A DNA stretch of 64,000 nucleotides, taken from the NCBI GenBank assembly GCA_964482955.1, contig CAYZZW010000003.1, forward strand, positions 68,676 through 132,675, written 5' to 3'. Shown here piece by piece: positions 39,904 through 62,362 of the stretch (the stretch's first letter is position 1; each line of letters starts with the position of its first letter). The notes beneath the pieces were generated by a model. The model saw nothing but the letters and a program-made list of their open reading frames with translations, did no database searches and had not been told where the DNA came from. Both the position numbers and the translations under genes were made by a program. This stretch comes from an uncultured Treponemataceae bacterium. GTDB taxonomy: Bacteria > Spirochaetota > Spirochaetia > Treponematales > UBA12059.

Positions 39904-39916
39904 GATATCGCCTCCC

Positions 39917-40162: not shown

Positions 40163-40179
40163 GGCTCTCTCCTTTCGTG

Positions 40180-41510: not shown

Positions 41511-41522
41511 AACGGGCCTCCT

Positions 41523-41576
41523 CGTATCGAAAAACGTCGATACGAGGAGGATAGCGATCACATCGACGATTGTCAA
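41523..41576 (-). promoter_or_regulatory. Sigma70-type promoter plus palindromic operator of the ars operon
   Basis: The minus strand reads TTGACA (41576-41571), a 17-nt spacer, TATCCT (41553-41548), and then the perfect palindrome CGTATCGA-CGTTTT-TCGATACG (41544-41523). The palindrome abuts the AGGAGG ribosome-binding site of arsR. Confidence 0.55.
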
Positions 41577-41593
41577 TGTGAAGCGGGGAAGGA

Positions 41594-42871: not shown

Positions 42872-42958
42872 GGCGACCTCCCGGCGGGCGCGACGGCGGC
42901 CCGACGCCCGAATTCTAGCCGATGCGGCGCCGCGGGGCAAGCGTACGGCCGACGTGGG

Positions 42959-44086: not shown

Positions 44087-47000
44087 TCATTTGCCCCAAT
44101 ACTGGAACGCCGCGTAATAGTACGGATTCGAGTAATCCGTCGGCGTTCCCGCGCCGAGGAGCGCCTTCCATCGCGCGTCGCGCGGCCACGTGCCGTCAGC
44201 CAACGCGTCCCGGGCCGTCCGCATGGCGTCGCGGGGCGAGGCTCCGGACGCGAGCATGGAATGGAAGATGACCATGAACACGCGCGTCGCGTCGTCGGAG
44301 ACCGGCCAGAGGCTGACGACGACGCCGTTGGCGCCCGAGGTCATCCAGGCTTGGGTCAAGCCGATCACGCCCTCGGTGGCCGTCACCTTGCCCATCGCCG
44401 TCTCGCAGGCTGAGAGGACGACGAGGTCCGCTTTCGTCTCGAGCGCGACGATCTCGGCGGCGAGCAGGCTGCCGTCTTCCCGGCGACCCGGGGCTTCGAG
44501 CGACTCGTATGCCTGCCGTTTCGCGGCCGGCACGGCGTCGGGCTGGGTGAGGAGGAGCCGGCTCGTCTCGGGCAGGTCGGGCACCGATTCGCCGTGGCAC
44601 GCGAAGTGGATCGTCTTCGCGTCCGCGAGGCGCAGGGTTTTTCCGTTCGCCGAAAGGCCCGGGCCTCCGAGCTTCTTCACGACGGGTTCAGAGGCCATGA
44701 TCCCCCGGAACAGCGCCGCCTGGGCATTCTTGGGATCCGCGTAATGGATGGCGGCCACCTCGATCGCCTCGCGTTCGGCCCCCGGAAGATCCTCCCATCT
44801 GCGCTCGCGGAAGCCGCGGTCCAGGATGTCCGCGAGCGCCGAGACGCGGCGGGATCCGTCGAGGTCCGCCGCCTCGCCCGCGGACGCGTCCGTGCCGCCC
44901 GACTCCGCGCTTTCCACCGAGTAGTGCGCGCCTCCGAACGCCAACACGGGGACGCGCTTCAGTTTCGAGTAGTCGCGATTCGGGCTCCGGAGCCGCGCGA
45001 GGACGGCGAGGGACGGCGCGTAGGAGGTCGAAAAACGTTGGCCGAACCGCGCGCCCTCGTAAGGCAGCGCATCCCACGGGAGGAGGCAGAGATCGCCGTC
45101 CGGCACCACGACGAGCGAGGATACGTCCGGGCCGAACGACGCCTTCGAAGGAAGGATCACGAGCGCGATGACGGCGAGCCGCTCCGCCGGCCGCGTTTCG
45201 CCGAGTTTCCGCGAACCTTGCACCCAGCGCAGGAGCGAGGCGCGGTATTCGCCGACCGCCTTGTGGAGATCCTGCTCCTTGTCGTGTTCGAAATACTTCA
45301 CGGTACCGTCGCGTTTGGCGATCCACGCGCCCGTGCGGTCTTCCACCGTCGCGTACACGAGCGCCGCCTCGTCGCCGGCGAGGCAGGCGAGCGACGCGCC
45401 CAGGGCGGGCGCGGACGATTCGCGCAGCTCGGCGTAGCGGGGATACCGGCGCCCGAGTTCGGCTTCCAGCGCGTCCACGTCCCGTTCCGCCGAGCGCTTC
45501 GACGACGCGAGCTGGGCCAGCGCGCCGTCCTTCCCGCGGGCCGAGTCCGACAGTTCCCTGAGCCCCGAGGACAGGGCCGCCAGGCGCTCGTCGAGGGCGA
45601 CGCGCCGTTCGATGTCGGCGGCGGAAACCCCCGCCGCCTTGAGCGCGTCGCGCACGGAGAGGTTTTCCATGAAGGTCCGGCCCTTGAGCGCTTCCCACGC
45701 CTCGAGGGCGCCCGCGGGATCGGAAGGCGCCAGCTCGAGCGCGAGCCGCTTCAGGGTGTCGGAGACGTTTTCGGCGTACTGCGTGCGTTCCGCCGAGACG
45801 CCGGCGCGCCTCCGCACGGCGAGCGCCTCGGAGACGGCCGCGCGCAGTTCGGCCATGGCGCGTTTCGGTTCGCCGCCGCGCGCCACGGCTCGGGCGAGGC
45901 CGGCGCGCGCGTACACGGACGACCAGGCGTCGCCCGCGTCGCCGAACAGGGCGAGGGCCGCGCGGTAGCGGGCTTCGGCGCGCGCCGGGTCGGGCGGCGT
46001 CGAGTCGAGCGCGAGGTCGCCGAGGCTCTGCTCGCAGTTCGCCTCGCCGAGCGACGAGCCGTACGCGCGGTAGAGCGGTATCGCCTCCTCGAAGCGCCGT
46101 TTCGCCTCGTCATGGCGGCCGGTCCGGAGCGCGATCTCGCCGAGCCCGTGCAGGCAGTTCGCCGTTCCCAGCGTCGACTTGGTTCTTTCAAAGGCGGCCA
46201 ACGCGGCTTCGTAGCGTCCGAGCGCCTCCGGATAGCGCTTCCGCGCGAGCGACACGTCGCCGGCGGAGCGCAGGCAGTTGGCCTCGCCGAGCAGGTCGCC
46301 CGCGGAGCGGTAGAGCGCGGCGGCTTCGTCGTAACGGGCTTCCGCCTCGGCGTATTCGCCGCGGGCGCGATACAGCTCGGCGATCCCGAACGCGCACGAC
46401 GCCTCGCCCGCCGGATCCTTCGCAGCCGTGCTGAGCGACCGGGCCTCGTCGAACGAGGCGCGGGCTCCCGAGGCGTCGGCCCTCCGCGAAAGGAGCGTCC
46501 CGAGTCCGAGCAGCGCCTGAGCGCGCAGGCGCGGATCGGCCTTCGCGGCGGGATCGGCCAGGACGCCCCGGTATTTCTTCTCCGCGGCCGCGAGGTCGCC
46601 GCGCCTCGTCAAAATGCCGGCCGCCTCGAGCTCGCACGCGAGGACGCCCCCGGGGGCGTTCGCCGAGCGGTAGGCTTCCCGCGCCGCGTTCACTGCCTTT
46701 TCCGCCGCGTCGAAGTCGGAGGTCGCGAGGGCCGCCTGCGCGTCGACGAGCCAGCACGCCGCGACGTCGCCAGGTCGCTTGGCGGCCGCGTACCGTTCGC
46801 GGGCGCGGGCCGAACGCTCGAGCGCACGGGGGAAATCGGCTTCGCGGAGATCGGCGCGCGCGAGTCCCGCGAGGGCGCCGCCTTCGCCGGTCGCGTCGCC
46901 GCTCCGGGCGAAGGCGTCCGCCGCGAGCTGGAAGAAGACACGGGCGGCCGCCGTCTCGCCGAGCGCGAACGCGGCGGTCCCGGACGCGAGGTCCGCGTTC

Positions 47001-48289: not shown

Positions 48290-48305
48290 CGGATACCCCA
48301 TTGTC

Positions 48306-49817
48306 TCAGCGGACGCTCTGGGCCAGACGCAGCCCGATGAACTCGTCGCGGTAGGACGGATCGTACGGGTAGCGTATGCTCGTGCGCGCGCCGTCCTCGT
48401 TGTAGTACCAGGAACCGCCGCGCAGGACGCGGTAATCGTCGCCGCCGGGGCCGACCGGATCGGTCTGGTCCGCGGCGTCGTAGCTCCCGAAATTGTCCCA
48501 GCACCATTCCCACACGTTGCCGCTCATGTCGTACAGCCCGAGCTCGTTCGCGGCCTTGAGCGCCACTTCGTGGGCCAGGTCGCCCGAGTTGCCCTTGTAG
48601 AACGCCACCGCGTCGATGTCGTCTGAACCCGCGTAACGGGTGCCCCGCGACTTCTGGCCGCCGCGCGCGGCGTATTCCCATTCGGCTTCGGTGGGCAGGC
48701 GGTAGCCGTCCGCGCCGAAATCGCACGTTACCGAAGCGCCGTCCACGCGGTACGCGGGCGCGAGCCCGTCCTTGAGGCTCTTGGCGTTGCAGAACGCGAC
48801 GGCGTCCAGCCACGACACCGATTCCACGGGAAGGTTCTTGTACCCCTGGATGGCGCTCGGGTTCGAACCCATGACCGACTGCCATTCGCCCTGCGTGACT
48901 TCGTACTTGCTCAGGCGATAGTCGCCCAGCGTCACCGCGTGCACCGGCTCGGCGATGCCGCGCTGGCCCATCTGGAAGGCGCCGCCCTTCACGAGGACGA
49001 ACTCCGACTTGAGCTGCGGCCGAGCCGCCGTGGGCTTGGCCGCGCGAGTGGGGATGGCCGCCGCGGGCTTCTTCGCGGTCGCGGAAGCCGTGTCGACCGT
49101 GGCCGACGAACCCGCCGGGCCCGACGATCTCCGTTCGGCTTCGGAACTCTGCCGCTTGAGCTCCGCCACCTTGTCGATGCGGGCTTTCGCCTCCGCGTAC
49201 TCGGCGGCGGCCACCATGCCCCGTTCGTTCATGCTCTCGAGCACTTCGCGCGCGAACGCCGGGGCCGCCGAATCGAGCGCCTTGTCGACGAGCGCGAGCC
49301 CTTCCTCTTTCGTCAGGATGGCCGCCGCGATGAAGCGACCGCGCTCGACTTCGACGCTTTCGTCCGCGCTCACGGCGTCGCGGAAGGGCAGGGTCATGGC
49401 CTCGACGTATTCGGCGCGCGCCAGCGCGGCTTCCATCGCCTTGGAAGCGGGCGCTTCGGCGCGTGCCGCCTCCAGCGCGTCCACCAGTTCCGAAACGGCG
49501 CGATCCCTCGTCATCCCCGTTTCGCTACTCGGCCCCACCTGACCGTTCGCGGTCATGCCAGCGAGCGCTTCGTCGACGAGCTTCGCCGCGGAATCGCGCG
49601 AAACGGAATCTTTGGCTTCCAGGGCGGACACGATGCCGCGGGCGGCGTCTTTCGGATCCGACGGCGCTGCGGATGGTGCGGTCGTCCGCGTTGAATCTGT
49701 CGTTGTAGAGTTTGTCGCGGTTTCCTTTTTCGTGCAGGAAACGAGCGCGATGAACGTCATCGTCGAAAGCAGCGCCGTGACGCAAAGTACCGCAATCATT
49801 TTGATCGTTCTTGTCAT
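48306..49817 (-). CDS. Lipoprotein with a C-terminal FGE-sulfatase (SUMF1/C-type-lectin-like fold) domain, probably non-catalytic
   Basis: 503-aa ORF. The lipobox is MTRTIKMIAVLCVTALLSTMTFIALVSC, followed by an Ala/Glu-rich helical region. The FGE-sulfatase domain has YRLSKYEVTQGEWQSVMG, YRLPTEAEWEYAARGG, LYDMSGNVWEWCWD and RVLRGGSWYYNEDGAR. The Cys pair of true formylglycine-generating enzymes is absent after RGGSW. Confidence 0.85.
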   Translation of the reverse strand: MTRTIKMIAVLCVTALLSTMTFIALVSCTKKETATNSTTTDSTRTTAPSAAPSDPKDAARGIVSALEAKDSVSRDSAAKLVDEALAGMTANGQVGPSSETGMTRDRAVSELVDALEAARAEAPASKAMEAALARAEYVEAMTLPFRDAVSADESVEVERGRFIAAAILTKEEGLALVDKALDSAAPAFAREVLESMNERGMVAAAEYAEAKARIDKVAELKRQSSEAERRSSGPAGSSATVDTASATAKKPAAAIPTRAAKPTAARPQLKSEFVLVKGGAFQMGQRGIAEPVHAVTLGDYRLSKYEVTQGEWQSVMGSNPSAIQGYKNLPVESVSWLDAVAFCNAKSLKDGLAPAYRVDGASVTCDFGADGYRLPTEAEWEYAARGGQKSRGTRYAGSDDIDAVAFYKGNSGDLAHEVALKAANELGLYDMSGNVWEWCWDNFGSYDAADQTDPVGPGGDDYRVLRGGSWYYNEDGARTSIRYPYDPSYRDEFIGLRLAQSVR

Positions 49818-49850
49818 GCCAGTACTCCCATGAATCGTCTGGTGAACCGT

Positions 49851-51116
49851 TTATTTCCGGATGTCTTCAAAGACGGCTTTCGAACCGTCCCAGCTGAAAT
49901 CGGCCGCTTTCGCGCGCGTTGTCCGGCCGTCGGCGAAGATGTCGGAATCGATGATGTGCCCGAGGATCACATCGCCCGACGCGTCGAGGCGGAGCTGGAT
50001 GCCTTGGGCGAAGCGATAGGTCTTGCCGTCAGCGGCCCGGAGCGGCGTCGGTTCTTTCAGGACGAGTACCGACTTGTCGAAACGTGCCGTGCCGCCCGTG
50101 AAATCCGCTCCCCACCCCAGCGTCTGCACGGCGACACCGCGGATGTCGGTGGTGCCTTCGGATCGCGCCACGCCCTGGATCACGCGGCCTTCGTCGTTCC
50201 AGTTGATCGACATCGCCCAACCGGGTTGGAACGCGTACGCCTTTCCGTCGTTCGCGTCGAGACGCGCCTCTTCATCGAGGTACGCCTCCCCGAGCAGGAT
50301 CGAAGGCTGCCCGCTTTCCGGGCGGTCGAACCAAGCCATGCACCACGCGACGGCAAGGTCGCGTCCCGCGAAGCGGATCTTCTGGCTTAGCAACGCGCCG
50401 CTCTTGACGAGTCCGGATCCGCCGTCATCGAAGCATGTGTAGCGGAATCCGGCGGTGAAATAATACGAACGTCCGTCCAGCGCTTCGAGACTCGTCATGG
50501 CGTCCAAGGCGACCTTGCGACGTCCGAAGACCGCGCGCCCTCCCTCGTCGAAACTCAAGTCGCACGCGTTCACGACGACCGGTCGACCCGTTTCCAGCTT
50601 GAGGGTGCGGACGCCTTGCACGGTTCCGCGCTCGACAAGACCTTCCGTCGTCAGCCACAGTTCCTCGCCTGCCATGAAAGGGTAAGCGTTTCCGTCACGC
50701 GCTTTCAGGATGATATCGTCGATCGGCATCGAAAAATCGCCCGCCAGATCGTACGCCGCGACACGGATTGTCCTGCCCTGAAGCGTCGCGTCCTTTTCTT
50801 CCCTGAATCCGGCTTCGAAAAGCGTTCCGTCCTTGTCGATGCATACCGGGTGGTCCCAACCGCCCATCAGGACGGTAGCCCGTCCGTCCGGCAGCGTCAC
50901 GTCGGCGTCGTTCCGCAAGTAAAGGCGATATCCGCCTCCGTCCAGCTCCGTGACGGAAACGCAATCGAGCTCCTGCCCGTTCCAGGAGAAGGAGCGCTCC
51001 GTATTTCCGCCCGAGCCGACGGCCTGTGCTTCTGGGTCCGCGCTCGTAAAAGGCAACGCGAGCTCGCTGACGATGAGGAGAAGGACAAGGCGGGCAAGGC
51101 GGCTCGGATGGATCAC
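49851..51116 (-). CDS. Exported repeat protein of unknown function
   Basis: 421-aa ORF preceded by GAGGAGG. The N-terminus is signal-like (MIHPSRLARLVLLLIVSELALPFTSA). It has at least five spaced repeats of the form DG(K/R/N)xYxFxxG ... G: DGRATVLMGG, DGNAYPFMAG, DGRSYYFTAG, DGKAYAFQPG, DGKTYRFAQG. I recognised no family. Confidence 0.7.
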   Translation of the reverse strand: MIHPSRLARLVLLLIVSELALPFTSADPEAQAVGSGGNTERSFSWNGQELDCVSVTELDGGGYRLYLRNDADVTLPDGRATVLMGGWDHPVCIDKDGTLFEAGFREEKDATLQGRTIRVAAYDLAGDFSMPIDDIILKARDGNAYPFMAGEELWLTTEGLVERGTVQGVRTLKLETGRPVVVNACDLSFDEGGRAVFGRRKVALDAMTSLEALDGRSYYFTAGFRYTCFDDGGSGLVKSGALLSQKIRFAGRDLAVAWCMAWFDRPESGQPSILLGEAYLDEEARLDANDGKAYAFQPGWAMSINWNDEGRVIQGVARSEGTTDIRGVAVQTLGWGADFTGGTARFDKSVLVLKEPTPLRAADGKTYRFAQGIQLRLDASGDVILGHIIDSDIFADGRTTRAKAADFSWDGSKAVFEDIRK

Positions 51117-51406
51117 GTGTTCCTCCTCGAACTTGTTGGCATGATACGATAATTACGAGGCCGGGTTTTGGGTTACGGGGGAGAAGGAAATTTGTTTCGC
51201 GTTCTTCGCGGATGCTTGAAAACGCCGCATCCGGAAGCGGGGATTCTCTCGACTAGTGATGATGTTGACCTCTGGAAACCGAAGCCGAGTATCGGCGAGC
51301 CCGAACCGTATGTCAAGGATAATGGGCGTCGCTGCGGCTGGTCGAAAAAGATAAAACATGCCGCTTCCGTCAGCTTGATCTCATGTTACACGAGCTTGAT
51401 TCCGGT

Positions 51407-51435
51407 TTGACAGCACCCGAAACGCCCCTTATAGT
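51407..51435 (+). promoter_or_regulatory. Candidate sigma70 promoter for the giant-gene operon
   Basis: TTGACA (51407-51412), a 17-nt spacer, then TATAGT (51430-51435), about 90 nt upstream of the ATG at 51528. It sits inside the AT-richer 411-bp divergent spacer. Confidence 0.45.
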
Positions 51436-51527
51436 GACCGCAACAAGTAACCGAAGACTAATCCGCGTGTTTATCGGGCAGGTCCACGACCGCTTTCCCG
51501 AAAATCCATGCATGAAGGACAAGCCAC

Positions 51528-54500
51528 ATGAAACGTCCGCGCATCGTCGCCCTCCTGACAGTGATCGTCGCCGCAGCTTCCTTCGCCCAAACCCCTTCTT
51601 TGGACGACTACCGCGTGTGGACCCAGCTCAAGGAATACGTCTATTGCGATACCGGCGTGGCGGAATCGGGGGAAGTGCTGGGTATCTTTCCGGATTTTCC
51701 GCCTTTCGCCGATTTCCCCTTTCGGTATCGGGGCCAGGACACCTTCGCGGTCACCGGATCAGGCAACGAGATTTTCGTGGACGGGAAACCGTATTGCCTG
51801 CTCGTGGAAACCGAAGCTGATTTCGCGAAAGCCGACGGACGTTACGAAGCGTTGTGGTTCACGGACGCCGCCCTGCTCAAGCCCGAACGTCTCAAGCTGC
51901 TCCCGAAGCCGCTCGCGGGACGCAGCATCAAGATTACCGGGGCGGACGACGAGACGATTGCCGGCATGGTGAATGCGGGAGTCCTGGATGGCGTGACGGT
52001 GCTCTCCGTCAGTCGGTGCCGTATCGGAGATGATACGGCGATAGCACTGTGCAAAAGGCTTCCCGATCTTGAATATCTTGATATCACCGCCACTGACGTC
52101 GGGGATCGCGGCTTTCTGGAAGGCGTCGTGTCGTTTTGCGGCGGATTGAGAGGACTCAGTATCCGGGAAACCCGAATAACGGAGGCGAGTTACGTCAAGG
52201 GAATTTCCAAACTCGCCACTTTGAGGAACCTGTATCTCGGGGACTGGTCAGGAACCAGCCTGACGGATCGGGCCATTGTCGATGGCGTTTGCGCCGTCAA
52301 AGGGCTCAGGAAGATCGACATCATGTGGGCCAGCAGTCCTACGGATGTTTCAATGGCGGCGCTTTCCGGATTGCCTGAACTCCGGAGCCTCGTTTTTTCC
52401 TGCCCGAAGGTGACGGATCGGGCACTGATGACTATCGCGAAAAACGCGAAAAAGCTGATGGAACTCCGCTTCGGAACCGGTCGGAACGCGAAACAAGATG
52501 ACGCCTTGGTTTCGCTGGGCGCGATGCAGAACCTGAAAATCCTGCATCTCAATACGGATTACGGAGTCGAGTGGAACGAAATCTACGAGCCCATCATGAG
52601 CGAAATCGCCTGGAGAGACGGTATCGGCAAGCTCGGGAATTTGAAGGTATTGGGAATCAACGGGGCGCGAATCACGGAAGCCGACGCGCGCGATGGTCTC
52701 GGTCGGCTCGAAAACCTCGAGTTCCTCCAGCTTATGGGCTCCGATCTGAACGACAGGACCATGTCCGTGGCCTTCGCCAACCTCCATAAGTTAAAGCGCG
52801 TGTATCTGAACGACTGCAAACAAGCCGGCGACGACGGGGCGATCGCTCTCTGCGTCAACAACCCGGGCATGGATACGCTTTACATCAGCCAGTCAACCAT
52901 CGGCGACCGGGCGTTCGTCGACGGGATTTCCCGCCTCAAGTCGCTCAGGACGCTCAACGTGTGGGGCAACCGACGCTTGGGAACGGATGGCGTCGTCGCA
53001 TTGTGCGAAGGATGTCCGGATCTGTTGTCGCTCGACATGCTCGGAGCCCAAGTAGACGTAAAAGCCTTCAACGAAGGCGTCGCATCGCTCAAGAAACTCG
53101 TCAGGCTCGGCGCGCAACAAACGTCGTTGTCGGACGATTTCTTTTCGGGGAATCCCGATATCGCGCCCAGGCTGAAAGTACTTGTCGCACACGATCACAC
53201 CGAATTGACCGATCGTTTCGCCAAAGAAGTATTGCCTAAAATGAGGAACCTTTATTCCCTCACGGTGGCGGGAACCCGGATTTCCGAGGAAGCCCTCTAC
53301 GCCGCGCTTCCGCGCCTCCCCCGCCTCTATTCGATCGACGACCAGACCGTGAAGGATAGGATGCGCTACCTGCTCGAGCGTATCGCCGTGAAAAAGCGGG
53401 TGGGGCCGGATATCTACAGATTCGATCCAGGCACGGGGACGCTCGGCGGACTCAAATGCGGCATGGCGCTGGCCGAGATAGAATCCGTTTACGGCAGGAA
53501 ACTCGTTCCGTGGAAAAACCCGGACGAGTGGGAACGGACGAACTTCGACGCCGTGTACGAACTGTTCGGTCTCAAGATCTGCTCCAAGAACGGCCGCGTG
53601 GCGCGGATCCTGAGCCCGTGGTGGGACATGAAGTTTTCGACCGTCGCCGGAACGACGCTCGGCATGAAACTCGAACGAGGTCTGGCGCTCGAGCGAAAAC
53701 CCGATGACATAAGTCAAAACAGCTTCGCGTTCCGCGATGGTCCGGAAACCCGCTCATTCTTGACTGAAGAAAAAGGTCGGATTGTCCATTTCGAAGTCAA
53801 TACGAAGATCGAATTTCTGGAAACCGCCGGACTGCCGTCGTTCGCTCCTCTGCCGAGGGAACTGGTTGATTCGCTCGGTGACCGGGCATTCATGTTCAAG
53901 ACAGGTAAGGAACTCGAGTTGTGCGGTATCGCGCCGGGCATGAAGATTCCCGAAATTCTCTCGAAAACGTACGCAAATTACGCGGCACTCGACGCCGTAA
54001 GGGAACTTCAAGCGCTGCCCGGCGAGACGATGTATCGTTTTCCGAACGTTGCCTTCGCGGCGAAGAACGGCATCGTGACGCGCGTACAGGGCAACCTATG
54101 GGACGCGCGACTCCATCTATCCAGCATGAACGTGAAGGTGGGCGACGATTCGGCGATGCTCGTGGCTTCGACCGGCGCCCCGCAGCGTACGACGAACCGG
54201 AGCGACGGCCTCCGTGAGCTCGCGTGGGACGCCGCGAAAGCGACGGTCGTCGTCATCGTGGACAGGCACGGAACCGTGGCCGGTTTCCGCCTGGAGATCC
54301 TGGCGTCAGGCGTTACGGGCGGCAACCGTGTATTCGACAACGAAGAAGATCCGAACGCCGGGGAACGCTTCCGCTCAGCCGTCGCGCGAATCTCCGAAGG
54401 ATCCGGGCGCTGGGAAGCATGGGACAACATCCGCGATTTCTCGTGTTCGAATGGCCGCATACTCGGCGTCGCGAGAAACGATGATCCCTACTTCGGCGCA

Positions 54501-55880
54501 GAAGGTCTTTCCATCGGGGGCGCGGAAGGGCAGAAGATCGTCGTGCGGTTCAAGGCGGGCTCGGGGGATTCGATCGGCATGTATTGGATAACCGAAGACG
54601 CGCCGGAATTCGATGAAGAAAAAGCGATGCATCTTCCTCTCGTTTCTGACGGCCAGTTCCGCGACTACGTGTTCGACGTGGGCGCCAGATCTGAATGGGC
54701 GGGCAAGCGGATCACCGGTCTCCGCATCGATCCGACGGAAGGCGGTCCCGGCGGACCGTTCGAGATCGAGTCGATCAAGGGCGTGTATCTATCGAAGTCG
54801 GAGCGCGAGGCGCTCGACCGGAAGAACAATCCGCAGCTCGGAAAATCCTTCGAGCGCATCGTTGCGAACTTGGCGGCCGAATGCGGCATGAGGCCGGGTT
54901 TCCGGACGGATTTCAAAGACGCGGCTATCAAGACTTTTGACCGGTGGAATTCGCCGGAACTCGTCGTGAAAGACGGAGCGGTCATATTCGCGAAGGGCAA
55001 TACCGAAGATCCCGCGTTCGTCCGGCCGTCTACCATGAAGCCGGGCAAGCTCATAGCCCTGCGCTTCCGCAAGACGCCGGGAGCCAGATTCGCGATGGAT
55101 GTCGAACGCGGAACCTGGGACACGCCGGATTTCCAGAGCATACACGTGGAAGGGGTTCCCGAACAGGAATGGTATTCGAGCGGATTCAACGCGGGAGCCG
55201 ATAAGCGCGCGGACTGGGAAACCCGTGGATACGAGGTCAAAAACGACGGCGAGTACCTGGCCGTCTGGACGACGACCGAAGACGGGAAACTTCTGGTGAA
55301 TGTCTATGACGCGAATGGCCGTGAATGGAGTTCGGGACCGCGTTTGGCCGTCGCCGGCATGCCCTGGCATTGGATCGTCAGGATATGGGAAGGTTCGATA
55401 AAGCTGGTAGACTACGCCGAATACGAAATCGTCAAACCGGCGAGTGATTTTGCGAAGATCATGGAGGTCATTTCCGCGGACCCCGCCGGCTGGTATCCGC
55501 TCAATCAAATGAAGGGCCTGGATTCCGCGGGAACGACGCTGAAGGGTACGGCGACCGGTGGCGATCCGAGTCTGGAACGATACGATATGTGTTTTCAAGG
55601 CGACAGGAACCAAACCATCGTGATTCGCGCCAAGGCCGAATCCGGAAAGATGATCGCCCTGTATTGGTGCAGCAACGACACGAATACCATGGACGAGACA
55701 AAGTCCATCCATCTTCCGCTCATCGCGGACGGCAAGTTCCACGATTACGTCTTCAAGGTAGGTTCCGATCCCGATTGGATCGGCAAGACTATATCCGGTC
55801 TCCGCATCGACCCGACGGAAGGCGGCCCCGGTGGCCCGTTCGAGATCGAGTTGATCAAAGGTCTCTACAAAGGAAGGTAA
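51528..55880 (+). CDS. Giant exported protein 1: conserved N-domain, RNI-type leucine-rich repeats, small beta-rich domains, and two copies of an unassigned ~140-aa module flanking a ~220-aa module
   Basis: 1450-aa ORF with a signal-like N-terminus (MKRPRIVALLTVIVAAASFAQ). The LRR array spans roughly aa 140-600 (nt 51945-53327), for example LPDLEYLDITATDVGDRGFLEGV and LENLEFLQLMGSDLNDRTM. The modules end in GLRIDPTEGGPGGPFEIESIKGVY (A1, nt 54378-54788) and GLRIDPTEGGPGGPFEIELIKGLY (A2, nt 55449-55868). Confidence 0.85.
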   Translation: MKRPRIVALLTVIVAAASFAQTPSLDDYRVWTQLKEYVYCDTGVAESGEVLGIFPDFPPFADFPFRYRGQDTFAVTGSGNEIFVDGKPYCLLVETEADFAKADGRYEALWFTDAALLKPERLKLLPKPLAGRSIKITGADDETIAGMVNAGVLDGVTVLSVSRCRIGDDTAIALCKRLPDLEYLDITATDVGDRGFLEGVVSFCGGLRGLSIRETRITEASYVKGISKLATLRNLYLGDWSGTSLTDRAIVDGVCAVKGLRKIDIMWASSPTDVSMAALSGLPELRSLVFSCPKVTDRALMTIAKNAKKLMELRFGTGRNAKQDDALVSLGAMQNLKILHLNTDYGVEWNEIYEPIMSEIAWRDGIGKLGNLKVLGINGARITEADARDGLGRLENLEFLQLMGSDLNDRTMSVAFANLHKLKRVYLNDCKQAGDDGAIALCVNNPGMDTLYISQSTIGDRAFVDGISRLKSLRTLNVWGNRRLGTDGVVALCEGCPDLLSLDMLGAQVDVKAFNEGVASLKKLVRLGAQQTSLSDDFFSGNPDIAPRLKVLVAHDHTELTDRFAKEVLPKMRNLYSLTVAGTRISEEALYAALPRLPRLYSIDDQTVKDRMRYLLERIAVKKRVGPDIYRFDPGTGTLGGLKCGMALAEIESVYGRKLVPWKNPDEWERTNFDAVYELFGLKICSKNGRVARILSPWWDMKFSTVAGTTLGMKLERGLALERKPDDISQNSFAFRDGPETRSFLTEEKGRIVHFEVNTKIEFLETAGLPSFAPLPRELVDSLGDRAFMFKTGKELELCGIAPGMKIPEILSKTYANYAALDAVRELQALPGETMYRFPNVAFAAKNGIVTRVQGNLWDARLHLSSMNVKVGDDSAMLVASTGAPQRTTNRSDGLRELAWDAAKATVVVIVDRHGTVAGFRLEILASGVTGGNRVFDNEEDPNAGERFRSAVARISEGSGRWEAWDNIRDFSCSNGRILGVARNDDPYFGAEGLSIGGAEGQKIVVRFKAGSGDSIGMYWITEDAPEFDEEKAMHLPLVSDGQFRDYVFDVGARSEWAGKRITGLRIDPTEGGPGGPFEIESIKGVYLSKSEREALDRKNNPQLGKSFERIVANLAAECGMRPGFRTDFKDAAIKTFDRWNSPELVVKDGAVIFAKGNTEDPAFVRPSTMKPGKLIALRFRKTPGARFAMDVERGTWDTPDFQSIHVEGVPEQEWYSSGFNAGADKRADWETRGYEVKNDGEYLAVWTTTEDGKLLVNVYDANGREWSSGPRLAVAGMPWHWIVRIWEGSIKLVDYAEYEIVKPASDFAKIMEVISADPAGWYPLNQMKGLDSAGTTLKGTATGGDPSLERYDMCFQGDRNQTIVIRAKAESGKMIALYWCSNDTNTMDETKSIHLPLIADGKFHDYVFKVGSDPDWIGKTISGLRIDPTEGGPGGPFEIELIKGLYKGR

Positions 55881-55883
55881 ACG

Positions 55884-58800
55884 ATGAACAAATCATCCCG
55901 CGTCACGCTGATGCTCGCGCTGCTGTGTGCGGCCATGGTGACCGCGCAGGCCCCGTCTCCGGACGGGTACCGGCACTGCATCGTGTTCAAGGAAAACGCG
56001 TTCATCGACGACTTTTGCGCGCGACCCGGGGACCTCGTGAGCATAAGCGTCGATTTCCCGCCGTGGGGCAGCGTGCCGTTCCGCTATGAAGGCCAGGAAT
56101 CGATACGGATCTCCGGCAAGGGCAACGAGATCTTCATAGACGGGAAACCGTGGTGCCTGCTCATCGAGTCGGAGGCGGATTTCGCCAAGGCGGATTCGCG
56201 CTACGCCGCGCTCTGGTTCACGAAAGGCGAACTCCTGAAGCCGGAGTACTTCAAGAAGATCCCCGGATCGCTGGCCAATAGGATCATCCGGGTATCGAAA
56301 ACGACCACGGAACAGTGGAAGGCGATAGCGGAGTCCGGAGCCTTGGACGCGGTAACCATTCTGGACATTTCCGGTTGCCCGATCCAGGGCCATTGGTTCC
56401 TGCCGACGCTCAAGCGCATGCCGAATCTCGTGTACCTCGACGCGAGCAATACGAATATCAACGATGGCGGAGCACTGGCGAGTCTCCAAGAGTATGCGGG
56501 AACTCCGAAACTAGAAACGTTGCTCTTGCATGGCGTGATTGTCTGGGAAGCCGATTTGGTGAACGGGATTTCAAAGCTAACGATGCTTCGTTCCCTCGCG
56601 TTCGTCAACTATTGGGAAGGTTTTCCAAAACCTGAGGTCATAAGTGCTCTGTGCAAGCTTGAAAAACTGGAAAATCTCGAACTGGGACCGGTTGCTTTTC
56701 TTTCCGACGACAATCTCAAGACAATCTGCGAACGGCTCGTGAATCTCCGGAAACTGCGTATCTATTCGAAAAAAGCAACGTCGGCAGCCGTCATCGACTC
56801 AATTTCAAAACGCACAGACCTCGTGGAATTGCAACTCGGTCTGTCGACGAACGGACTTTCGGAAGACGCGGTCGTGTCGCTGTCGAAGCTGCAAAACCTC
56901 AAAAAGCTCAACCTCAATACGGATTACTGGCCCAACTGGAACGAGCCTTTCAAGCCGCTGCTGACGGAACGGAGCTGGATCGACGGTCTCGGCAAGCTCG
57001 CTTCGCTCGAAAGCTTAACCGCGTACGGGGCGCGGATCACGGAAAAAGCCGCGCGGGAGGGATTGGGGCGGCTTTCGAACTTGACCTATCTCGATCTGTG
57101 CGGCAACGAGCTCGACGACGCGGGGGCCAAGGCCGCGTTCCCGACGCTCGGGAAGCTCCGCCACCTCAACCTCTATCGATCTCCCAAGTTGGGCGATGAC
57201 GGAGTGGTAGCCGTCTGCGCTGGTGCTCCGCAACTTGAAACGCTGCTCGTGACGAGCTCCGGACTTTCGGATCGCGGCATCAAGGAGGGAATCGCCAAGC
57301 TGTCGAAGTTGCGCGTGACGAAGCTGTCGATCAACAAGATAACGGCGGACGGCTTGATCGCCCTCTGCTCGGCGATACCGGGCATTACCACGTTGGACAT
57401 CGGCGGACAGAATATCGAGGACCGCGGTTTCGTCGAAGGCTTGCCCAAACTGAAAAATCTGGAAGTATTGAACGCATGGCAGTCGCTCATTACCGACCGG
57501 TACTTCCTGGAGCATCCCGAAATGGCGACGAAGTTCCGCGTGCTTGATTTCCATGACCACGCGATGATGACCGATCGCTTCGCCAAGGAAGTCCTGCCGA
57601 CGATGACAAACCTGCATTCCTTGAACGTAGACAAAAATCCCGTGAGCGAGGAAGCGGTCGTGTCGGTACTGCCGCGGCTTCCGCGTCTCGACACTCTGGA
57701 CGGAGAACCGGTATTTGAACGGCAAAAGCGGTATGTCGAGCGGATTGGCATCAAGAAACGCGTCGGGTCGGGAATTTATACGTTCGACGTGGCGACGAAC
57801 GTCTACGGCGGGGTGCGGCTCGGCATGACCTTGCAGGAAGTCGCGTCCATCTACGGTTCAATGCCCACACGCGTGGCCAAGCCCAGCGAATGGGAGGCGA
57901 AGACCTTCGAATCGGTCTGGGAGAACTTCAACCTCCGCTTTGGGGTAAAACGGAACCGCGTCGTCCGCATCGCGGGGCAGTGGTGGGATCCGAGGTATAC
58001 GACCAAGACTGGCGTGCGACCCGGGACGATCCTCGCCGCGGCCAAGACGGCCGACCGGGCGCCGGACGAAGTCCGCGACGACGCGCTCGTGTACCGCAAC
58101 GGCATCGTCTCGTTCACGATCGGCGCGTACGCCTTGGTCGGTTCCGATCGCTACGTCACGGATTTCTCGGCCGACGCGGACATCGACGCGCTCGAAGCCT
58201 CCGGTCTGCCGAAGCTCGCGCCGTTCGACGATGTACTCAATACCGCTTTGAAAGGCGACGCCTTTACGCTCAGGACTGGGGACAAGCCTTCGATCGGCGG
58301 CATCCGGCCGGGCATGAAGTACGACGGCGTCGTATGGAACGTCTACGCCGGGCAGGCGCCGCTCGAGGGATCCCCGGGCGTGAAAGCCGCAGCCGGCGAA
58401 AAGTCGTACCATTACGGCAACGTCTCGTTCGGCGCGAAGAACGGTCTCGTTACCTGGGTGTCGGGCAACGCGTGGGACGAACGATTCAAGGTTTCGAAAC
58501 CCCGCATGCGCGTGGGCGATCCGGCGGACGAACTCCTCAGGAAAGCCGGCCCGGCGGCGAGGAAGGCGAAAACGGACGACGGGCTCGACGATCTGGCGTG
58601 GGAAACGCCCGACGCCGTGGTGCATGTTTTTATCGACCGATATGGCACGATCGCGGGCTTCCGGCTTGACGCCCAAACCACCGCTAAAATACCGCGCCAT
58701 CCGTTCTGGAACGATCCGACGGATTACGGAAAGGGTGTGTCCGCGTGGGGCTCGCTCAAGCCGGGAGACGTCGCGGAATTCACGGCGGGCGGGGTGTCCT

Positions 58801-61715
58801 TCGCGATGCGCTTCGTGCCGGGCACGACCTTCCCGCAGGGATGGGAAGACGTCGACGTCGCGACGCTCGACGCGGGATTCTGGCTCGGCGAGACGGAAGT
58901 GACCTGGGAGCTCTGGGATGCCGTGGTCTCGTGGGCTACCGATCCGGCGAGGGGTGAAGCGATGTATCGTTTCGCCCAAACGGGTTGGCAGGGCGGATTC
59001 ACCGGACCCCAATGGATCGTGGATCCGCGCAGCACCGACCAGCATCCCGTGACGCTCGTCGCCTGGCGCAGTTCCATGATTTGGTGCAACGCGCTCACCG
59101 AATGGTACAACGCGACGAACGGCACTTCGTACACCTGCGCGTATTACGAAGACGCCGATTATAAAAAACCCATACGCACCTGCACGGACGAACGAAACGT
59201 CAATACCATCGAAGGCAAGCAGGACCGGCCCTATGTCAAGGCGGAGCTTCCCGGCAACGTGGATCCCGCCCGCTGCGACGCCACGGGCTTCCGGATGCAG
59301 CGCGCGCTCGAGTGGGAACTGGCGGCCCGCTACCGCGGCGACACGAACGACGATGGAGATATCCGGGATCCGGGAGAGTATTCTCCCTATAACTGGGCAA
59401 GCGGCGCCAAAGGGGACTTCAACGACATGGCCGCGACCGCGGAGGTGGCGAACGTCGATAAAGTCCTGACCGAACGCGTCGGAACGAGGAAGGCAAATGC
59501 CCTCGGCATCCACGACATGAGCGGAAACGTGTCGGAATGGTGTTTTGACGGTGAACCGACCGAAGGCAATCCCGTCCGCACCCGCGTCGGCTCCTCCTGG
59601 TCGTGGGGCCCGGGAATACACAACGGTTGCGCCGTGGTCGAACGCTGGATGCTGTATGGCACGAATACGGGCACCGGCTTGCGCGTAGCGCGGTCGTGGT
59701 TCCCCGAGGCAACCGCGGCGCGGACCGCTACGCAAAAAGAAGCGTACTGGCGCTCCGCTCTCGAAAAGTTGGCGCTTTCGCCCCGCGGCTGGAAGGCGGC
59801 CGACCAGGTCGCCGATCTCCAATCGGACCGCGGCCTCGTCTCCGGCCAGGCGACGGGCGGAAAGCCGATCCTCTTCCGTGACGATCTCCGTCTCTTCGGA
59901 GAAGCCGGCCAGGCGATTCCGATCCGCGTTTCCGCGGCCTCCGGTTCCGCGCTTCGCCTGTACTGGATCACGGACGACGACGGCGCGTGGTCCGAGAAAA
60001 AATCATTGCGCGTTCCGATCAAAGCCGACGGCACAGTCCACGACTACGTCCTGCAAGTCGGGACGAACGCGGCGTGGGCTGGCAAGATCGTCACCGCCCT
60101 CAGGCTCGTTCCGGCGGAAGGCGGGAAGGGCGGCGCGTTCTCCGTCGACTTCGGCGGCGGCGCCGCGTGCTACGAAGAGAGCCGCGCGAACCCCGAATTC
60201 GCCAAGGCGATCGAACTGCTCTCCGCCCATCCGGAAGTCTGGAGCGCGTGGAACCAGGTGGAAGGGCTCGCGGTTTCGAAGGGCATAATCAAGGGTAAGG
60301 CTACGGGGGGCGATCCTTTCATCGGCATCAATCGGACGCGCCTTGTCGGCACCACGACACAGAAGATCCTCATCCGCATCAAGGCCGTTTCGGGTGATCG
60401 AACCGCCATATTCTGGACCACGACCGACGATACGAACTGGGGCGGCGACAAGTGCGTGAGCGTGCCGCTCGTCCCCGACGGCGCTTTCCACGACTACGTG
60501 TTCGACGTCGGCGCGAATCCGGCTTGGGCAGGCTGGGTGATTAACAGGCTCCGCATAGATCCGACCGCGGGCGGTCCGGGCGGGCCTTTCGAGATCGAGT
60601 CGATCAAAGGCGTGTACGTATCGAAAGAAGAACGGGCGGCCGCGGAGCGCGCCGCGAATCCGCAGCTCGGGAAATCCTTCGAGCGCATCGTGGCTGATCT
60701 TGCCGCCGAGCGTGGGATGAAACCGGGTTTCCGGACGGATTTCAAGGACGCCGCGTTCAAGACCTTCGACCTCTGGGAAGAACCTGAAATCGCCGTAAAA
60801 GACGGCTTTCTTCAGTTCACGAAAGGGAAGACGCAAAATCCCGTGCTCGCGCGGTACCAAGCGATGAAAGCGGGAAGGATGATCGCGCTGCGGTTTTCGA
60901 TGCTGAAAGGAGCGCGCTTCTGCTTCATGCTCGAACGTGGCGAATGGCCGACCCCGGCGTATCAAAAGTCGATCCTGTGCGGCGGATCGGAAAGCGGATG
61001 GGGGTTGGATGAAGGCGGGGTTGACGCGACAAAGGCCCTCGCGTGGGATGCAAGCGGCTACACGGTCAAGCAGGGACCCGAATACCTGGCCGTATGGACC
61101 GCGACGCCCGACGGGAAGATCGGTCTCGCCGTGTACGATGGTACCGGGCGCGAGTGGCGCGCCGTATCATGTGCGGACGGCTCGGGCGCTCCGTGGATGC
61201 TGACCATCCGGATCGGTCAAGGTTCTATCAAGCTCATCGACTACGCGGAATACGAAACAGTCCAGCTGGCGAGCGACTTTCCGAAAATCATGGACGGCAT
61301 CTCCGCGAACCCGGCCGGGTGGAACCCGATCAACCACCTGAAGGATTTGAAAGCCGCGGGCACGATTTTGAAGGGTGTGGCGACGGGGGACGATCCGTAC
61401 ATGGAGCGCTACGACCTGTGCTTCGAGGGGGACATAAGTCACAAGATAGTCGTTCGGCTCAAAGCTGTTTCAGGTGACGACACCGAATTTCTGTGGATCA
61501 CCGCGGAGGAACCGAATTGGGGCGGGAACAAAGGACTCGGTGTTTCACTCATCCCGGACGGGCAGTTTCACGACTACGTGTTCGACGTGGGCAGCCGGAA
61601 AGAATGGGCCGGCAAGCGGATCACGGGACTCAGGCTCGATCCGACCGCGGGCGGACCGGGCGGGTCCTTCGAGCTCGAATCGATCAAGGGCGTGTACGAA
61701 ACGCAGAATCGCTGA
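55884..61715 (+). CDS. Giant exported protein 2: paralogue of protein 1 with an extra FGE-sulfatase domain and three copies of the ~140-aa module
   Basis: 1943-aa ORF starting 3 nt after the previous stop, with AGGAAGG upstream. The signal is MNKSSRVTLMLALLCAAMVTAQA. It is collinear with protein 1 over aa 1-930. An inserted FGE-sulfatase domain covers roughly nt 58776-59702 (FWLGETEVTWELWDAV, FRMQRALEWELAARY, IHDMSGNVSEWCFDG). The modules are B1 59742-60158, B2 60195-60617 and B3 61275-61697. Confidence 0.85.
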   Translation: MNKSSRVTLMLALLCAAMVTAQAPSPDGYRHCIVFKENAFIDDFCARPGDLVSISVDFPPWGSVPFRYEGQESIRISGKGNEIFIDGKPWCLLIESEADFAKADSRYAALWFTKGELLKPEYFKKIPGSLANRIIRVSKTTTEQWKAIAESGALDAVTILDISGCPIQGHWFLPTLKRMPNLVYLDASNTNINDGGALASLQEYAGTPKLETLLLHGVIVWEADLVNGISKLTMLRSLAFVNYWEGFPKPEVISALCKLEKLENLELGPVAFLSDDNLKTICERLVNLRKLRIYSKKATSAAVIDSISKRTDLVELQLGLSTNGLSEDAVVSLSKLQNLKKLNLNTDYWPNWNEPFKPLLTERSWIDGLGKLASLESLTAYGARITEKAAREGLGRLSNLTYLDLCGNELDDAGAKAAFPTLGKLRHLNLYRSPKLGDDGVVAVCAGAPQLETLLVTSSGLSDRGIKEGIAKLSKLRVTKLSINKITADGLIALCSAIPGITTLDIGGQNIEDRGFVEGLPKLKNLEVLNAWQSLITDRYFLEHPEMATKFRVLDFHDHAMMTDRFAKEVLPTMTNLHSLNVDKNPVSEEAVVSVLPRLPRLDTLDGEPVFERQKRYVERIGIKKRVGSGIYTFDVATNVYGGVRLGMTLQEVASIYGSMPTRVAKPSEWEAKTFESVWENFNLRFGVKRNRVVRIAGQWWDPRYTTKTGVRPGTILAAAKTADRAPDEVRDDALVYRNGIVSFTIGAYALVGSDRYVTDFSADADIDALEASGLPKLAPFDDVLNTALKGDAFTLRTGDKPSIGGIRPGMKYDGVVWNVYAGQAPLEGSPGVKAAAGEKSYHYGNVSFGAKNGLVTWVSGNAWDERFKVSKPRMRVGDPADELLRKAGPAARKAKTDDGLDDLAWETPDAVVHVFIDRYGTIAGFRLDAQTTAKIPRHPFWNDPTDYGKGVSAWGSLKPGDVAEFTAGGVSFAMRFVPGTTFPQGWEDVDVATLDAGFWLGETEVTWELWDAVVSWATDPARGEAMYRFAQTGWQGGFTGPQWIVDPRSTDQHPVTLVAWRSSMIWCNALTEWYNATNGTSYTCAYYEDADYKKPIRTCTDERNVNTIEGKQDRPYVKAELPGNVDPARCDATGFRMQRALEWELAARYRGDTNDDGDIRDPGEYSPYNWASGAKGDFNDMAATAEVANVDKVLTERVGTRKANALGIHDMSGNVSEWCFDGEPTEGNPVRTRVGSSWSWGPGIHNGCAVVERWMLYGTNTGTGLRVARSWFPEATAARTATQKEAYWRSALEKLALSPRGWKAADQVADLQSDRGLVSGQATGGKPILFRDDLRLFGEAGQAIPIRVSAASGSALRLYWITDDDGAWSEKKSLRVPIKADGTVHDYVLQVGTNAAWAGKIVTALRLVPAEGGKGGAFSVDFGGGAACYEESRANPEFAKAIELLSAHPEVWSAWNQVEGLAVSKGIIKGKATGGDPFIGINRTRLVGTTTQKILIRIKAVSGDRTAIFWTTTDDTNWGGDKCVSVPLVPDGAFHDYVFDVGANPAWAGWVINRLRIDPTAGGPGGPFEIESIKGVYVSKEERAAAERAANPQLGKSFERIVADLAAERGMKPGFRTDFKDAAFKTFDLWEEPEIAVKDGFLQFTKGKTQNPVLARYQAMKAGRMIALRFSMLKGARFCFMLERGEWPTPAYQKSILCGGSESGWGLDEGGVDATKALAWDASGYTVKQGPEYLAVWTATPDGKIGLAVYDGTGREWRAVSCADGSGAPWMLTIRIGQGSIKLIDYAEYETVQLASDFPKIMDGISANPAGWNPINHLKDLKAAGTILKGVATGDDPYMERYDLCFEGDISHKIVVRLKAVSGDDTEFLWITAEEPNWGGNKGLGVSLIPDGQFHDYVFDVGSRKEWAGKRITGLRLDPTAGGPGGSFELESIKGVYETQNR

Positions 61716-61724
61716 GGAGAAAAC

Positions 61725-62318
61725 ATGGATATTGCCGACGGCAAGCACCGCATGAGCGACGAGGATATGCGTCGTTTGATAGATCTAAGCGTATCGCCGT
61801 ATCTGCAGCTGGCGTACCGGCTCGTGGACGTGCCGCGGAAATACCACGGCAACATGTTCCGTCACCAGGGAGCCACCTTCTTCATCCTCATCGACTACGG
61901 CTACACGGACCACGTCCTGCTCAAGGCTTCGATCATCCACGACATCCTCGAGGACACGCCTACGAAACCGGAAGAGATCGAACGGCTCGACGACGGGGCC
62001 GCGGTGCTGGCGCTCGTGCGCGAAGTGACGAAGGCGGAGGATGAAACGAAGGACGAGTTCCTCGGACGCATCGTGGCCGCGGGATCCGAACGGGCGCGCG
62101 TCCTCAAGTGCGCGGACCGGATTTCCAACATGACGGACATCGGCTTTTCGTGCGAGTACGAGGAGCTCATGAAAACCGTCAGGGAGACGGAGCGGCACAT
62201 CCTGCCGATGGCGCGCTCGATCAATCCGTGGATGGCGAAGGAGCTCGAGGATCTCGTCGCGTCGCGTACGGCGATAGCCGCGCGAATGCTCGAAAACGGA
62301 AAAGGAAGAAGATTCTAA
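61725..62318 (+). CDS. HD-domain hydrolase resembling the SpoT/RelA (p)ppGpp-hydrolase domain (small-alarmone-hydrolase-like)
   Basis: 197-aa ORF starting 9 nt after the giant gene, preceded by GAGGAG. Motifs are FRHQGATFFIL, ASIIHDILEDTPTKPEEI, VLALVREVTK and ARVLKCADRISNM, in the same order as the SpoT hydrolase HD motifs. There is no signal peptide. Confidence 0.75.
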   Translation: MDIADGKHRMSDEDMRRLIDLSVSPYLQLAYRLVDVPRKYHGNMFRHQGATFFILIDYGYTDHVLLKASIIHDILEDTPTKPEEIERLDDGAAVLALVREVTKAEDETKDEFLGRIVAAGSERARVLKCADRISNMTDIGFSCEYEELMKTVRETERHILPMARSINPWMAKELEDLVASRTAIAARMLENGKGRRF

Positions 62319-62362
62319 AAGGCCGGACCGCTTGGTCTCGTTCGATGCTTGCGCGACCTGCT

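Follow-up and report, generated by a model that had tools for sequence, protein, structure and literature searches.

The window described here, the whole 64,000-nucleotide stretch of DNA that was analysed from an uncultured Treponemataceae bacterium, contains two divergent gene arms at positions 44087-62318. One arm encodes a protein with tetratricopeptide repeats and a CHAT protease domain (TPR-CHAT), a lipoprotein with the fold of the formylglycine-generating enzyme (FGE)-sulfatase family and an orphan repeat protein, U421. The other encodes two giant leucine-rich repeat (LRR) proteins, G1 and G2, and a small HD protein. An earlier note on this DNA proposed that the two arms make up one undescribed system. 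With moderate confidence, the region is read here instead as clustered genes whose exported products belong to the envelope or the surface, assembled from at least two evolutionarily separate pieces and without a demonstrable single machine. The proposal of one system found no support, given that the parts fail to co-occur in 15 TPR-CHAT loci or 80 FGE loci, that codon usage splits the locus, and that the parts themselves are common.

Composition and gene neighbourhoods

The six open reading frames (ORFs) were found exactly where the earlier note had placed them, with the spacings that it described. Their translations show long, uninterrupted frames, and GC at third codon positions (GC3) is high (Table 1). 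In the minus arm, U421 is followed by the FGE lipoprotein and then by the TPR-CHAT protein. The gap of 33 nt between the genes for U421 and the lipoprotein holds a GGGAG Shine-Dalgarno sequence, or ribosome-binding site, read from the sequence. The stop codon of the FGE gene lies 4 nt from the first ATG of the CHAT gene and 16 nt from the second, which yields a textbook signal-peptide start (MKKQ...). In the plus arm, G1, G2 and the HD gene follow one another with gaps of 3 nt and 9 nt. As had been described, the arms diverge from a single spacer that is richer in AT than the window. It contains one sigma-70-like site on each strand (plus, 51407-51435, 11/12; minus, 51316-51288, 10/12), and the total of promoter-like sites across the region is at chance level relative to shuffled sequence. 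Rfam gave no match in the locus or the spacer, so no regulatory RNA is seen. The genes flanking the locus are ordinary chromosomal genes, and all six products are singletons when clustered at 90% identity. An origin from a phage or an island was rejected, as there are no viral-contig relatives of U421 or G1 and no tRNA in the 64-kb window.

A single N-terminal segment, basic plus hydrophobic, is seen in each of the five large products, none of which has a further one resembling a transmembrane helix, and the FGE protein also has a lipobox, such that the signal-like N-termini pointed out in the earlier note are present. All five are probably exported. Because the assignment is made by a hydropathy heuristic, export is a well-founded expectation rather than a result.

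Composition divides the locus. The CHAT gene (GC 0.727, GC3 0.88, codon distance 0.041) and the FGE lipoprotein gene (GC 0.67, GC3 0.84, codon distance 0.085) match the flanking genes. The genes for U421, G1, G2 and the HD protein have a GC of 0.58-0.63, a GC3 of 0.71-0.80 and codon distances of 0.11-0.14, with G1 at GC 0.58, GC3 0.71 and codon distance 0.139, and U421 at GC 0.63 and GC3 0.76. Long native genes have codon distances of 0.05-0.07, and the giants, at 0.11-0.14, lie far off. Given that the CHAT and FGE genes are native in codon usage and that U421, the giants and the HD gene are atypical, the compositional boundary falls not at the divergent spacer but at ~49.8 kb, where the FGE gene adjoins U421.

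Gene neighbourhoods were compared in two directions. Eleven distant TPR-CHAT loci were found with a three-sequence CHAT alignment across 185,579 species-representative genomes, a collection that excludes the source genome, and were taken with at most 10 kb of flanking sequence. They were queried with the window's FGE domains, with the LRR, middle, M and X regions of the giants, and with U421 and the HD protein, using CHAT as a positive control. The CHAT query matched 11/11 loci, and relatives of the FGE, LRR, M, X, middle, U421 or HD queries were found in 0/11. Four further TPR-CHAT loci with precomputed Pfam labels (L095-L098) also have no FGE neighbour (0/4). In the other direction, 80 metagenomic loci in which FGE relatives (35-49% identity) occur were all without a CHAT or TPR-CHAT gene; 45 of these offered at least 2 kb of downstream sequence and 28 at least 4.5 kb. 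The earlier note had held that a lack of conserved co-occurrence in related genomes would refute one system, and no conserved co-occurrence was found with the CHAT, FGE and module queries, as far as it can be tested. The LRR, middle and X regions of the giants and U421 have no relatives detectable by sequence, so comparison neither supports nor disproves a linkage of giants or U421 to the protease. The pairing of an FGE-lipoprotein gene with a TPR-CHAT gene, absent from all 95 comparison loci, is new.

The occurrence of the FGE-sulfatase fold on both arms had been taken as a sign that the arms belong together. The domains of the lipoprotein and of G2 are 35% identical over 94 aa only, at the conserved motif of the family, and sequence places them in different subfamilies, one TvpA-like and the other part of a cassette shared with a secreted protein, P0140. 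Therefore, the presence of both says little about a bond between the arms.

Table 1. Features of the divergent locus, with positions numbered in the window
Feature	Residues	Window position	Strand	Basis or remark
TPR-CHAT protein	1404 aa	44087-48301	-	Pfam CHAT + TPR; probable start ATG 48289
CHAT domain	1057-1403	44093-45133	-	Pfam PF12770, 2.4e-49
Catalytic His	H1236	44594-44596	-	motif HFACHG
Catalytic Cys	C1299	44405-44407	-	motif VLSACET
FGE lipoprotein	503 aa	48306-49817	-	lipobox LVSC, Cys28; Pfam FGE-sulfatase
FGE-sulfatase/C-type-lectin-fold domain	272-499	48321-49004	-	Pfam PF03781, 5.4e-48
U421	421 aa	49851-51116	-	GTG start; repeat protein, no family match
Divergent spacer		51117-51527		411 bp, 52.3% GC vs ~68% for the window
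G1	1450 aa	51528-55880	+	LRR_14; module M x2
G1 signal peptide, then N-domain	21-150 (N-domain)		+	domain layout
G1 LRR array	~150-600	51975-53327	+	LRR_14
G1 middle region	600-940		+	no relatives
G1 module M	954-1088	54387-54791	+	paralogue alignment
G1 domain X	1090-1300	54795-55427	+	no relatives
G1 module M	1300-1450	55425-55877	+	paralogue alignment
G2	1943 aa	55884-61715	+	order of G1, with FGE-plus-M cassette inserted after middle region
G2 FGE-sulfatase domain	993-1222	58860-59549	+	Pfam, 1.3e-18
G2 module M	1292-1423	59757-60152	+	paralogue alignment
G2 module M	1437-1579	60192-60620	+	paralogue alignment
G2 domain X	1581-1791	60624-61256	+	domain layout
G2 module M	1792-1939	61257-61700	+	paralogue alignment
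HD protein	197 aa	61725-62318	+	NCBIfam spoT_relA, 4.6e-11; HD_4 below cut-off

The TPR-CHAT protein and the FGE-fold lipoprotein

The CHAT domain scores 168.8 bits against its Pfam model (cut-off 24), and the His-Cys dyad falls in invariant columns of an alignment of 26 homologous sequences, in agreement with the earlier call of a caspase-like His/Cys protease. The domain is preceded by an Ala-rich TPR region at approximately residues 35-850 (Pfam TPR_12, 6e-30), which lies behind a signal-peptide-like N-terminus. Close relatives are limited to two metagenomic fragments, 52-54% identical, the nearest of which is P0009, a frameshifted full-length TPR-CHAT gene from JGI 3300020048 that is 54% identical. 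The wider family is very large, with proteins of 850-1050 aa at 25-32% identity in many phyla, and the window protein is longer than these relatives. Homologues include metagenome-assembled genomes (MAGs) of Acidobacteriota, Krumholzibacteriota, Opitutaceae, Gemmatimonadota and Aminicenantes, and Leptospirales and Spirochaetes MAGs are among the CHAT matches, which, like the TvpA-like lipoprotein, gives a hint, no more, of an origin in spirochaetes. A phmmer search of the PDB with the CHAT protein returned TPR proteins only and no CHAT-bearing chain, including those of the DdvA and Csx29 types. Two TPR-CHAT genes lie within 10 kb of one another, mostly on opposite strands, in four of the 11 distant loci (L005, L008, L009 and L011).

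Signal-peptide-like N-termini were recognized by a crude heuristic in at least 62 of 102 full-length TPR-CHAT homologues, and several more look similar by eye, so that predicted export appears to be the rule in this family. The earlier note had seen novelty in exported versions of parts known from conflict systems. Export is indeed probable here, but exported TPR-CHAT proteins are common and one, DdvA, has been structurally characterized (PMC11506125). The window protein resembles generic members of the family in the order of TPR and CHAT, in the conserved His and Cys and in the export-type N-terminus that most of them carry. It differs from this uncharacterized family in its neighbour, as 0/15 loci have an FGE lipoprotein upstream.

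Two better described TPR-CHAT proteins were considered as identities for the window protein. DdvA is an anti-sigma factor of Myxococcus xanthus whose periplasmic TPR-CHAT region was solved by cryo-electron microscopy; the proposal for it is that of a site-1 protease that is latent until a signal activates it (PMC11506125). In both proteins a CHAT domain carrying a His-Cys dyad comes after an array of TPRs, and both lie, the window protein by prediction, outside the cytoplasm. In contrast to DdvA, which has a zinc-binding cytoplasmic anti-sigma domain and an adjacent gene for an extracytoplasmic function (ECF) sigma factor, the window protein has a hydrophobic segment preceded by no more than ~15 residues, no sigma-70 family gene among its neighbours, and, at its greater length, a much longer TPR region. 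A DdvA-type anti-sigma factor was therefore ruled out, as both the anti-sigma N-domain and the adjacent ECF sigma gene are lacking. The Csx29 protein of Craspase, from type III-E CRISPR systems, shares the TPR-CHAT architecture and, in the summary given by PMC11506125, the principle that activation is allosteric. Csx29 resides in the cytoplasm in a complex with Cas7-11, whereas the window protein has a signal-like N-terminus. This identity was likewise ruled out, with no cas-like product and no PADLOC or NCBIfam defence match at the locus; no CRISPR-like repeat array is reported for 43-64 kb.

The FGE-fold domain of the lipoprotein scores 164.3 bits against its Pfam model (cut-off 23.3) and makes up the C-terminal part of the protein, and the N-terminal half is of low complexity and helical. 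The first catalytic Cys of the true enzyme is replaced by Tyr, as GGSWYYNED in the lipoprotein aligns to GGSYLCHDS of the Streptomyces FGE (6muj), and there is no Cys at all after residue 439. Because that Cys aligns to Tyr, the domain is, as far as its sequence can tell, a lectin-fold binder and not a formylglycine-making enzyme, as the earlier note had also supposed. An identity as a true FGE/SUMF1 enzyme was ruled out, since the paired catalytic cysteines after the GGS motif are not present, and so was one as a PorK/GldK ring lipoprotein of the type IX secretion system (T9SS), for which the NCBIfam score is 78.4 bits against a cut-off of 350.

The best solved relative of the domain is TvpA, a variable protein of Treponema denticola (PDB 2y3c, 4e-38), which is also a non-catalytic lipoprotein whose C-type-lectin fold is of the FGE subtype. 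The window lipoprotein differs in having an extra N-terminal region of 240 residues, for which no homologue was found in the 80 metagenomic FGE loci or in the 64-kb window. TvpA is a target of a diversity-generating retroelement (DGR), and for this reason a template repeat and a reverse transcriptase (RT) were looked for. Unlike the case of TvpA, the 64-kb window has no pair of template and variable repeats, with no template repeat for the 3' region of either FGE domain, and no ORF or domain of an RT. Two independent run assemblies (Logan), SRR10083294 and SRR10083296, match the window at 100% and 99.99% identity where they cover it. They span window positions 48677-62477 and 48677-56522, respectively, and both break exactly at 48677, a position within the lipoprotein's FGE domain. 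The shared break suggests that a repeated FGE motif or paralogues confused the assembly.

The giants, U421 and the HD protein

G1 and G2 share 39% identity across their N-terminal 930 aa and 53% across their C-terminal 510 aa, which bears out their description as paralogues. The LRR arrays that had been reported in both are confirmed by LRR_14, at 47.4 bits in G1 and 62.1 bits in G2 (Pfam cut-off 40); LRR_4 is also above cut-off in both giants and LRR_6 in G1 only. An identity as internalins was ruled out (NCBIfam 26.7 bits vs a cut-off of 1600). A word-index search with full-length G1 returned only itself and two weak LRR matches, and none for the N-domain. Among the best 150 matches of a HMMER search with residues 600-1450 of G1, no best-scoring stretch lies within the middle region or domain X of G1, with three stretches reaching in from the adjoining M, and neither region has a solved relative by sequence. 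The two weak LRR matches are P0002, in which the array is fused to an ECF-type sigma factor, and P0003, in which it is fused to a BlaR1-type peptidase M56 sensor; similar LRR arrays thus occur as parts of signalling proteins.

The FGE domain of G2 scores 68.1 bits (cut-off 23.3). Residues 960-1421, which make up the FGE-M cassette, align over 486 aa at 40% identity with P0140, a secreted protein of 1254 aa from another organism (L099, 220-3984) with a faintly X-like C-terminus. P0140 is surrounded by genes of signalling and metabolism, and neither LRR nor CHAT is found near it. This suggests that the FGE-M cassette is passed between proteins as a unit.

Module M, of ~140 aa, is present in five copies, two in G1 and three in G2. 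The module named in the earlier note is thus real, but it is not unassigned, as modelling, Foldseek and HMMER make it a common domain resembling a carbohydrate-binding module (CBM). An AlphaFold2 (AF2) model from an alignment of the five paralogues reached a pLDDT of 87 and a pTM of 0.84. Its top Foldseek matches are CBM4 (1gui; E 8e-6, TM 0.55), the accessory sandwich of a GH85 enzyme, CBM86, CBM16 and CBM17, with solved CBMs matching at E 8e-6 to 6e-4, TM 0.4-0.6 and 7-18% identity. A HMMER search of 1.84 billion representatives with residues 600-1450 of G1 found 997 representative proteins at E<=1e-3, every one with its best stretch on M. In these proteins M frequently occurs more than once and frequently lies at the C-terminus, and its partner domains are DUF5722, the CEMIP beta-helix, Beta_helix, F5/8-C, LamG, G8, dockerin/cohesin and T9SS tail domains. 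No Pfam or NCBIfam model matches M. In short, M is a predicted CBM4-like beta-sandwich that is widespread in secreted proteins. It shares with CBM4, CBM16, CBM17 and CBM86 the fold and the presence of multiple copies in secreted multidomain proteins, and it differs from them in its low identity to solved members and in having no family model; glycan binding by M is a prediction.

U421 is an all-beta protein with an export-type N-terminus and five repeats of ~70 aa with the consensus L.A.DGk.Y.F..G....eG.V..G. It has no match in Pfam or NCBIfam and no homologue in 5.8 billion clusters, where a word-index search returned only itself. The AF2 model from the single sequence is unusable (pLDDT 41). 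The HD protein has no signal peptide. It matches the Pfam model HD_4 at 22.3 bits, below the cut-off of 27.2, and NCBIfam spoT_relA as a local match. Its motifs, HD72, ED76 and ADR131 (KCADRISN), follow the HD...ED...KxADRxxN pattern of (p)ppGpp hydrolases. The earlier assignment as an HD hydrolase agrees with the motifs and the spoT_relA match, with HD_4 short of its cut-off. The protein resembles the (p)ppGpp-hydrolase domain of RelA/SpoT, and may be a cytoplasmic small alarmone hydrolase.

The recognizable parts of the locus all belong to known kinds or are variants of them, namely CHAT, an FGE-sulfatase fold other than a true FGE, LRR and a CBM-like fold. In addition to the lipoprotein-protease gene pair, what is new is the mosaic of LRR, lectin-fold and CBM-like modules in the giants, with three regions without assignment, and the orphan U421.

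Readings of the locus and its surroundings

Under the favoured reading of a composite cluster, the first piece, which has native composition, would consist of a membrane-anchored TvpA-like lipoprotein that binds a ligand and makes no formylglycine, and of an exported TPR-CHAT cysteine protease to whose gene that of the lipoprotein would be translationally coupled (4-16 nt). By analogy with separase, Craspase and DdvA, the protease is probably latent and would become active once a partner is engaged by its TPR scaffold; the lipoprotein translated along with it would be the likeliest candidate for partner, anchor or substrate. The second piece, lineage-specific and with atypical codon usage, would comprise U421, the two diverging paralogous giants and the HD gene. 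The giants may be Sec-exported multivalent binders, in which the LRR solenoid would serve for protein ligands, and the CBM4-like modules and the locus's second lectin-fold domain, that of G2, would bind glycans. Together they would allow external polymers or cells to be captured or adhered to.

Several observations weigh against this division. Five consecutive genes for exported soluble proteins surround one divergent promoter region, a clustering that exceeds that in the rest of the window. U421 lies within the minus-strand operon with the FGE and CHAT genes, yet resembles the giants in composition, such that the pieces are not cleanly separable. The comparisons rest on distant relatives (25-49% identity), often on short contigs, with no close relative in the collections. 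Moreover, a large exported protein is encoded directly beside the CHAT gene in all four labelled TPR-CHAT loci (L095-L098), which are from unrelated phyla. These neighbours are FG-GAP and Ig-repeat proteins, a 912-aa protein without a known family encoded 3 nt upstream, a peptidase M14 protein encoded 18 nt upstream along with an ECF sigma gene, and an FG-GAP/ASPIC protein with FlgD_ig. They hint at a recurrent theme of a TPR-CHAT protein with a variable exported neighbour, which could extend to the giants. On the strength of this theme, a partnership of lipoprotein and protease stays plausible, and an integrated system less so.

Such an integrated system would join all five exported proteins in recognition and proteolysis outside the cytoplasm, where a ligand would be sensed by the LRR, lectin-fold or CBM-like modules and the protease would then process the giants or another envelope target. 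The common spacer with a promoter-like site on each strand, the tight gene spacing within the arms, the five export-type N-termini, the intact CHAT dyad and the large exported proteins beside TPR-CHAT genes in other phyla are all consistent with it. It is nevertheless quite unlikely, given that co-occurrence is absent from the 15 CHAT and 80 FGE loci, that no relationship of the two FGE domains is seen outside the family motif, that codon usage splits the locus, that the parts are common extracellular domains, and that PADLOC returned only a generic TPR model. If the protease pair is set aside as unrelated, the giants could instead form a glycan-capture locus, as scaffolds or substrate binders for a complex polysaccharide in the manner of non-catalytic cellulosome components or SusE/F-like binders. 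The five copies of a CBM4-like fold argue for this, as does the company of M elsewhere, which includes glycosidase-like, beta-helix, dockerin/cohesin and T9SS tail domains. However, neither the locus nor its immediate surroundings encode a glycoside hydrolase, lyase, transporter or regulator, proteins are the usual ligands of LRR arrays, and sugar binding by M is only putative at a Foldseek TM of ~0.5 and an identity of 10-18%, so that this alternative is also unlikely.

Two further readings draw on systems that use similar domains. DGR-diversified FGE or C-type-lectin (CLec) domains combined with CHAT or caspase-like domains have been described (PMC7159879; bioRxiv 10.1101/2023.09.22.558884; PMC7517822), and together with the match to TvpA these combinations would suit a lipoprotein, and perhaps the lectin-fold domain of G2, that is hypermutated by a DGR elsewhere in the genome. 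The window has neither a template repeat nor an RT ORF, and the two independent assemblies are identical to it, or very nearly so, where they cover it, which makes this very improbable. The caspase/TPR/FGS conflict systems of multicellular bacteria combine a caspase-like peptidase, a TPR-type superstructure and an FGS/FGE lectin-fold sensor, as does the locus, and have cytoplasmic NTPase cores (MoxR-vWA, STAND or GTPases), often with a DGR (Kaur et al. 2020, PMC7159879). Here the proteins are exported and no NTPase gene is found at 44-62 kb; an NTPase-centred conflict system (VMAP/iSTAND, PMC7159879) was thus ruled out, as no MoxR-vWA, STAND or GTPase core is adjacent. An envelope-level anti-phage or conflict system related to these or to the DdvA pathway would explain the shared domain vocabulary, but has hardly any likelihood. 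The locus lacks a STAND, MoxR-vWA or GTPase core, an ECF sigma factor, an anti-sigma N-domain and an effector, PADLOC again offers only the generic TPR model, a MoxR/DUF58 pair lies 33 kb off, and viral contigs hold no relatives of U421 or G1. In sum, the locus stands outside the DdvA, Csx29, PorK/GldK, internalin and NTPase-centred families, because the defining features of each were looked for and are lacking.

Elsewhere in the window, the MoxR (AAA_3) and DUF58 gene pair (10810-13121) recalls MoxR-centred conflict systems, with no vWA or effector partner in view. A NUDIX gene at 13394-13903, whose codon usage is far from typical (codon distance 0.17), lies in a patch of 52-60% GC (13122-14227) inside the 68% GC chromosome, and the intergenic stretch at 3099-3350, upstream of polA, is the most AT-rich measured in the window (43.7% GC). 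The plus-strand ORF at 32391-37577 (1728 aa as listed, with the true start probably further downstream) contains a methyl-accepting chemotaxis protein signalling domain at residues 737-864 and a family-5 solute-binding domain at residues 965-1327, and is by its predicted domains an unusual fusion of chemoreceptor and solute-binding protein. A cluster resembling those for arsenic resistance (37625-42940) encodes a rhodanese and a low-molecular-weight phosphatase, an SBF/Acr3-type carrier and an ArsP permease. It is adjoined by a gene for a cytochrome c552 nitrite reductase, the N-terminus of which ends in a lipobox-like VASC.

As it stands, the divergent locus, read as a composite of separate pieces, is mainly a catalogue item, a lineage-specific cluster of surface proteins from an uncultured and poorly sampled bacterium with 68% GC. 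The giants show how, in bacteria, secreted binders of very large size are put together from shuffled cassettes of the LRR, lectin-fold and CBM-like kinds, and the family of module M, with ~1000 representative proteins and absent from Pfam, merits curation. A more far-reaching proposal, which we regard as improbable, is that the lipoprotein and the TPR-CHAT protein are a new sensor-protease pair of the envelope, in which ligand-triggered cleavage would release or activate the giants, U421 or both, as a lineage-specific extracytoplasmic "caspase cascade". If true, such a cascade would point to surface remodelling or to interaction with other cells. To our knowledge, DdvA gives the only mechanistic hint so far for the exported TPR-CHAT family, which is otherwise uncharacterized. 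Cooperation of the lipoprotein with the protease, if true, would therefore provide a concrete, testable partner for a widespread family of signal-peptide-bearing TPR-CHAT proteins in many phyla.

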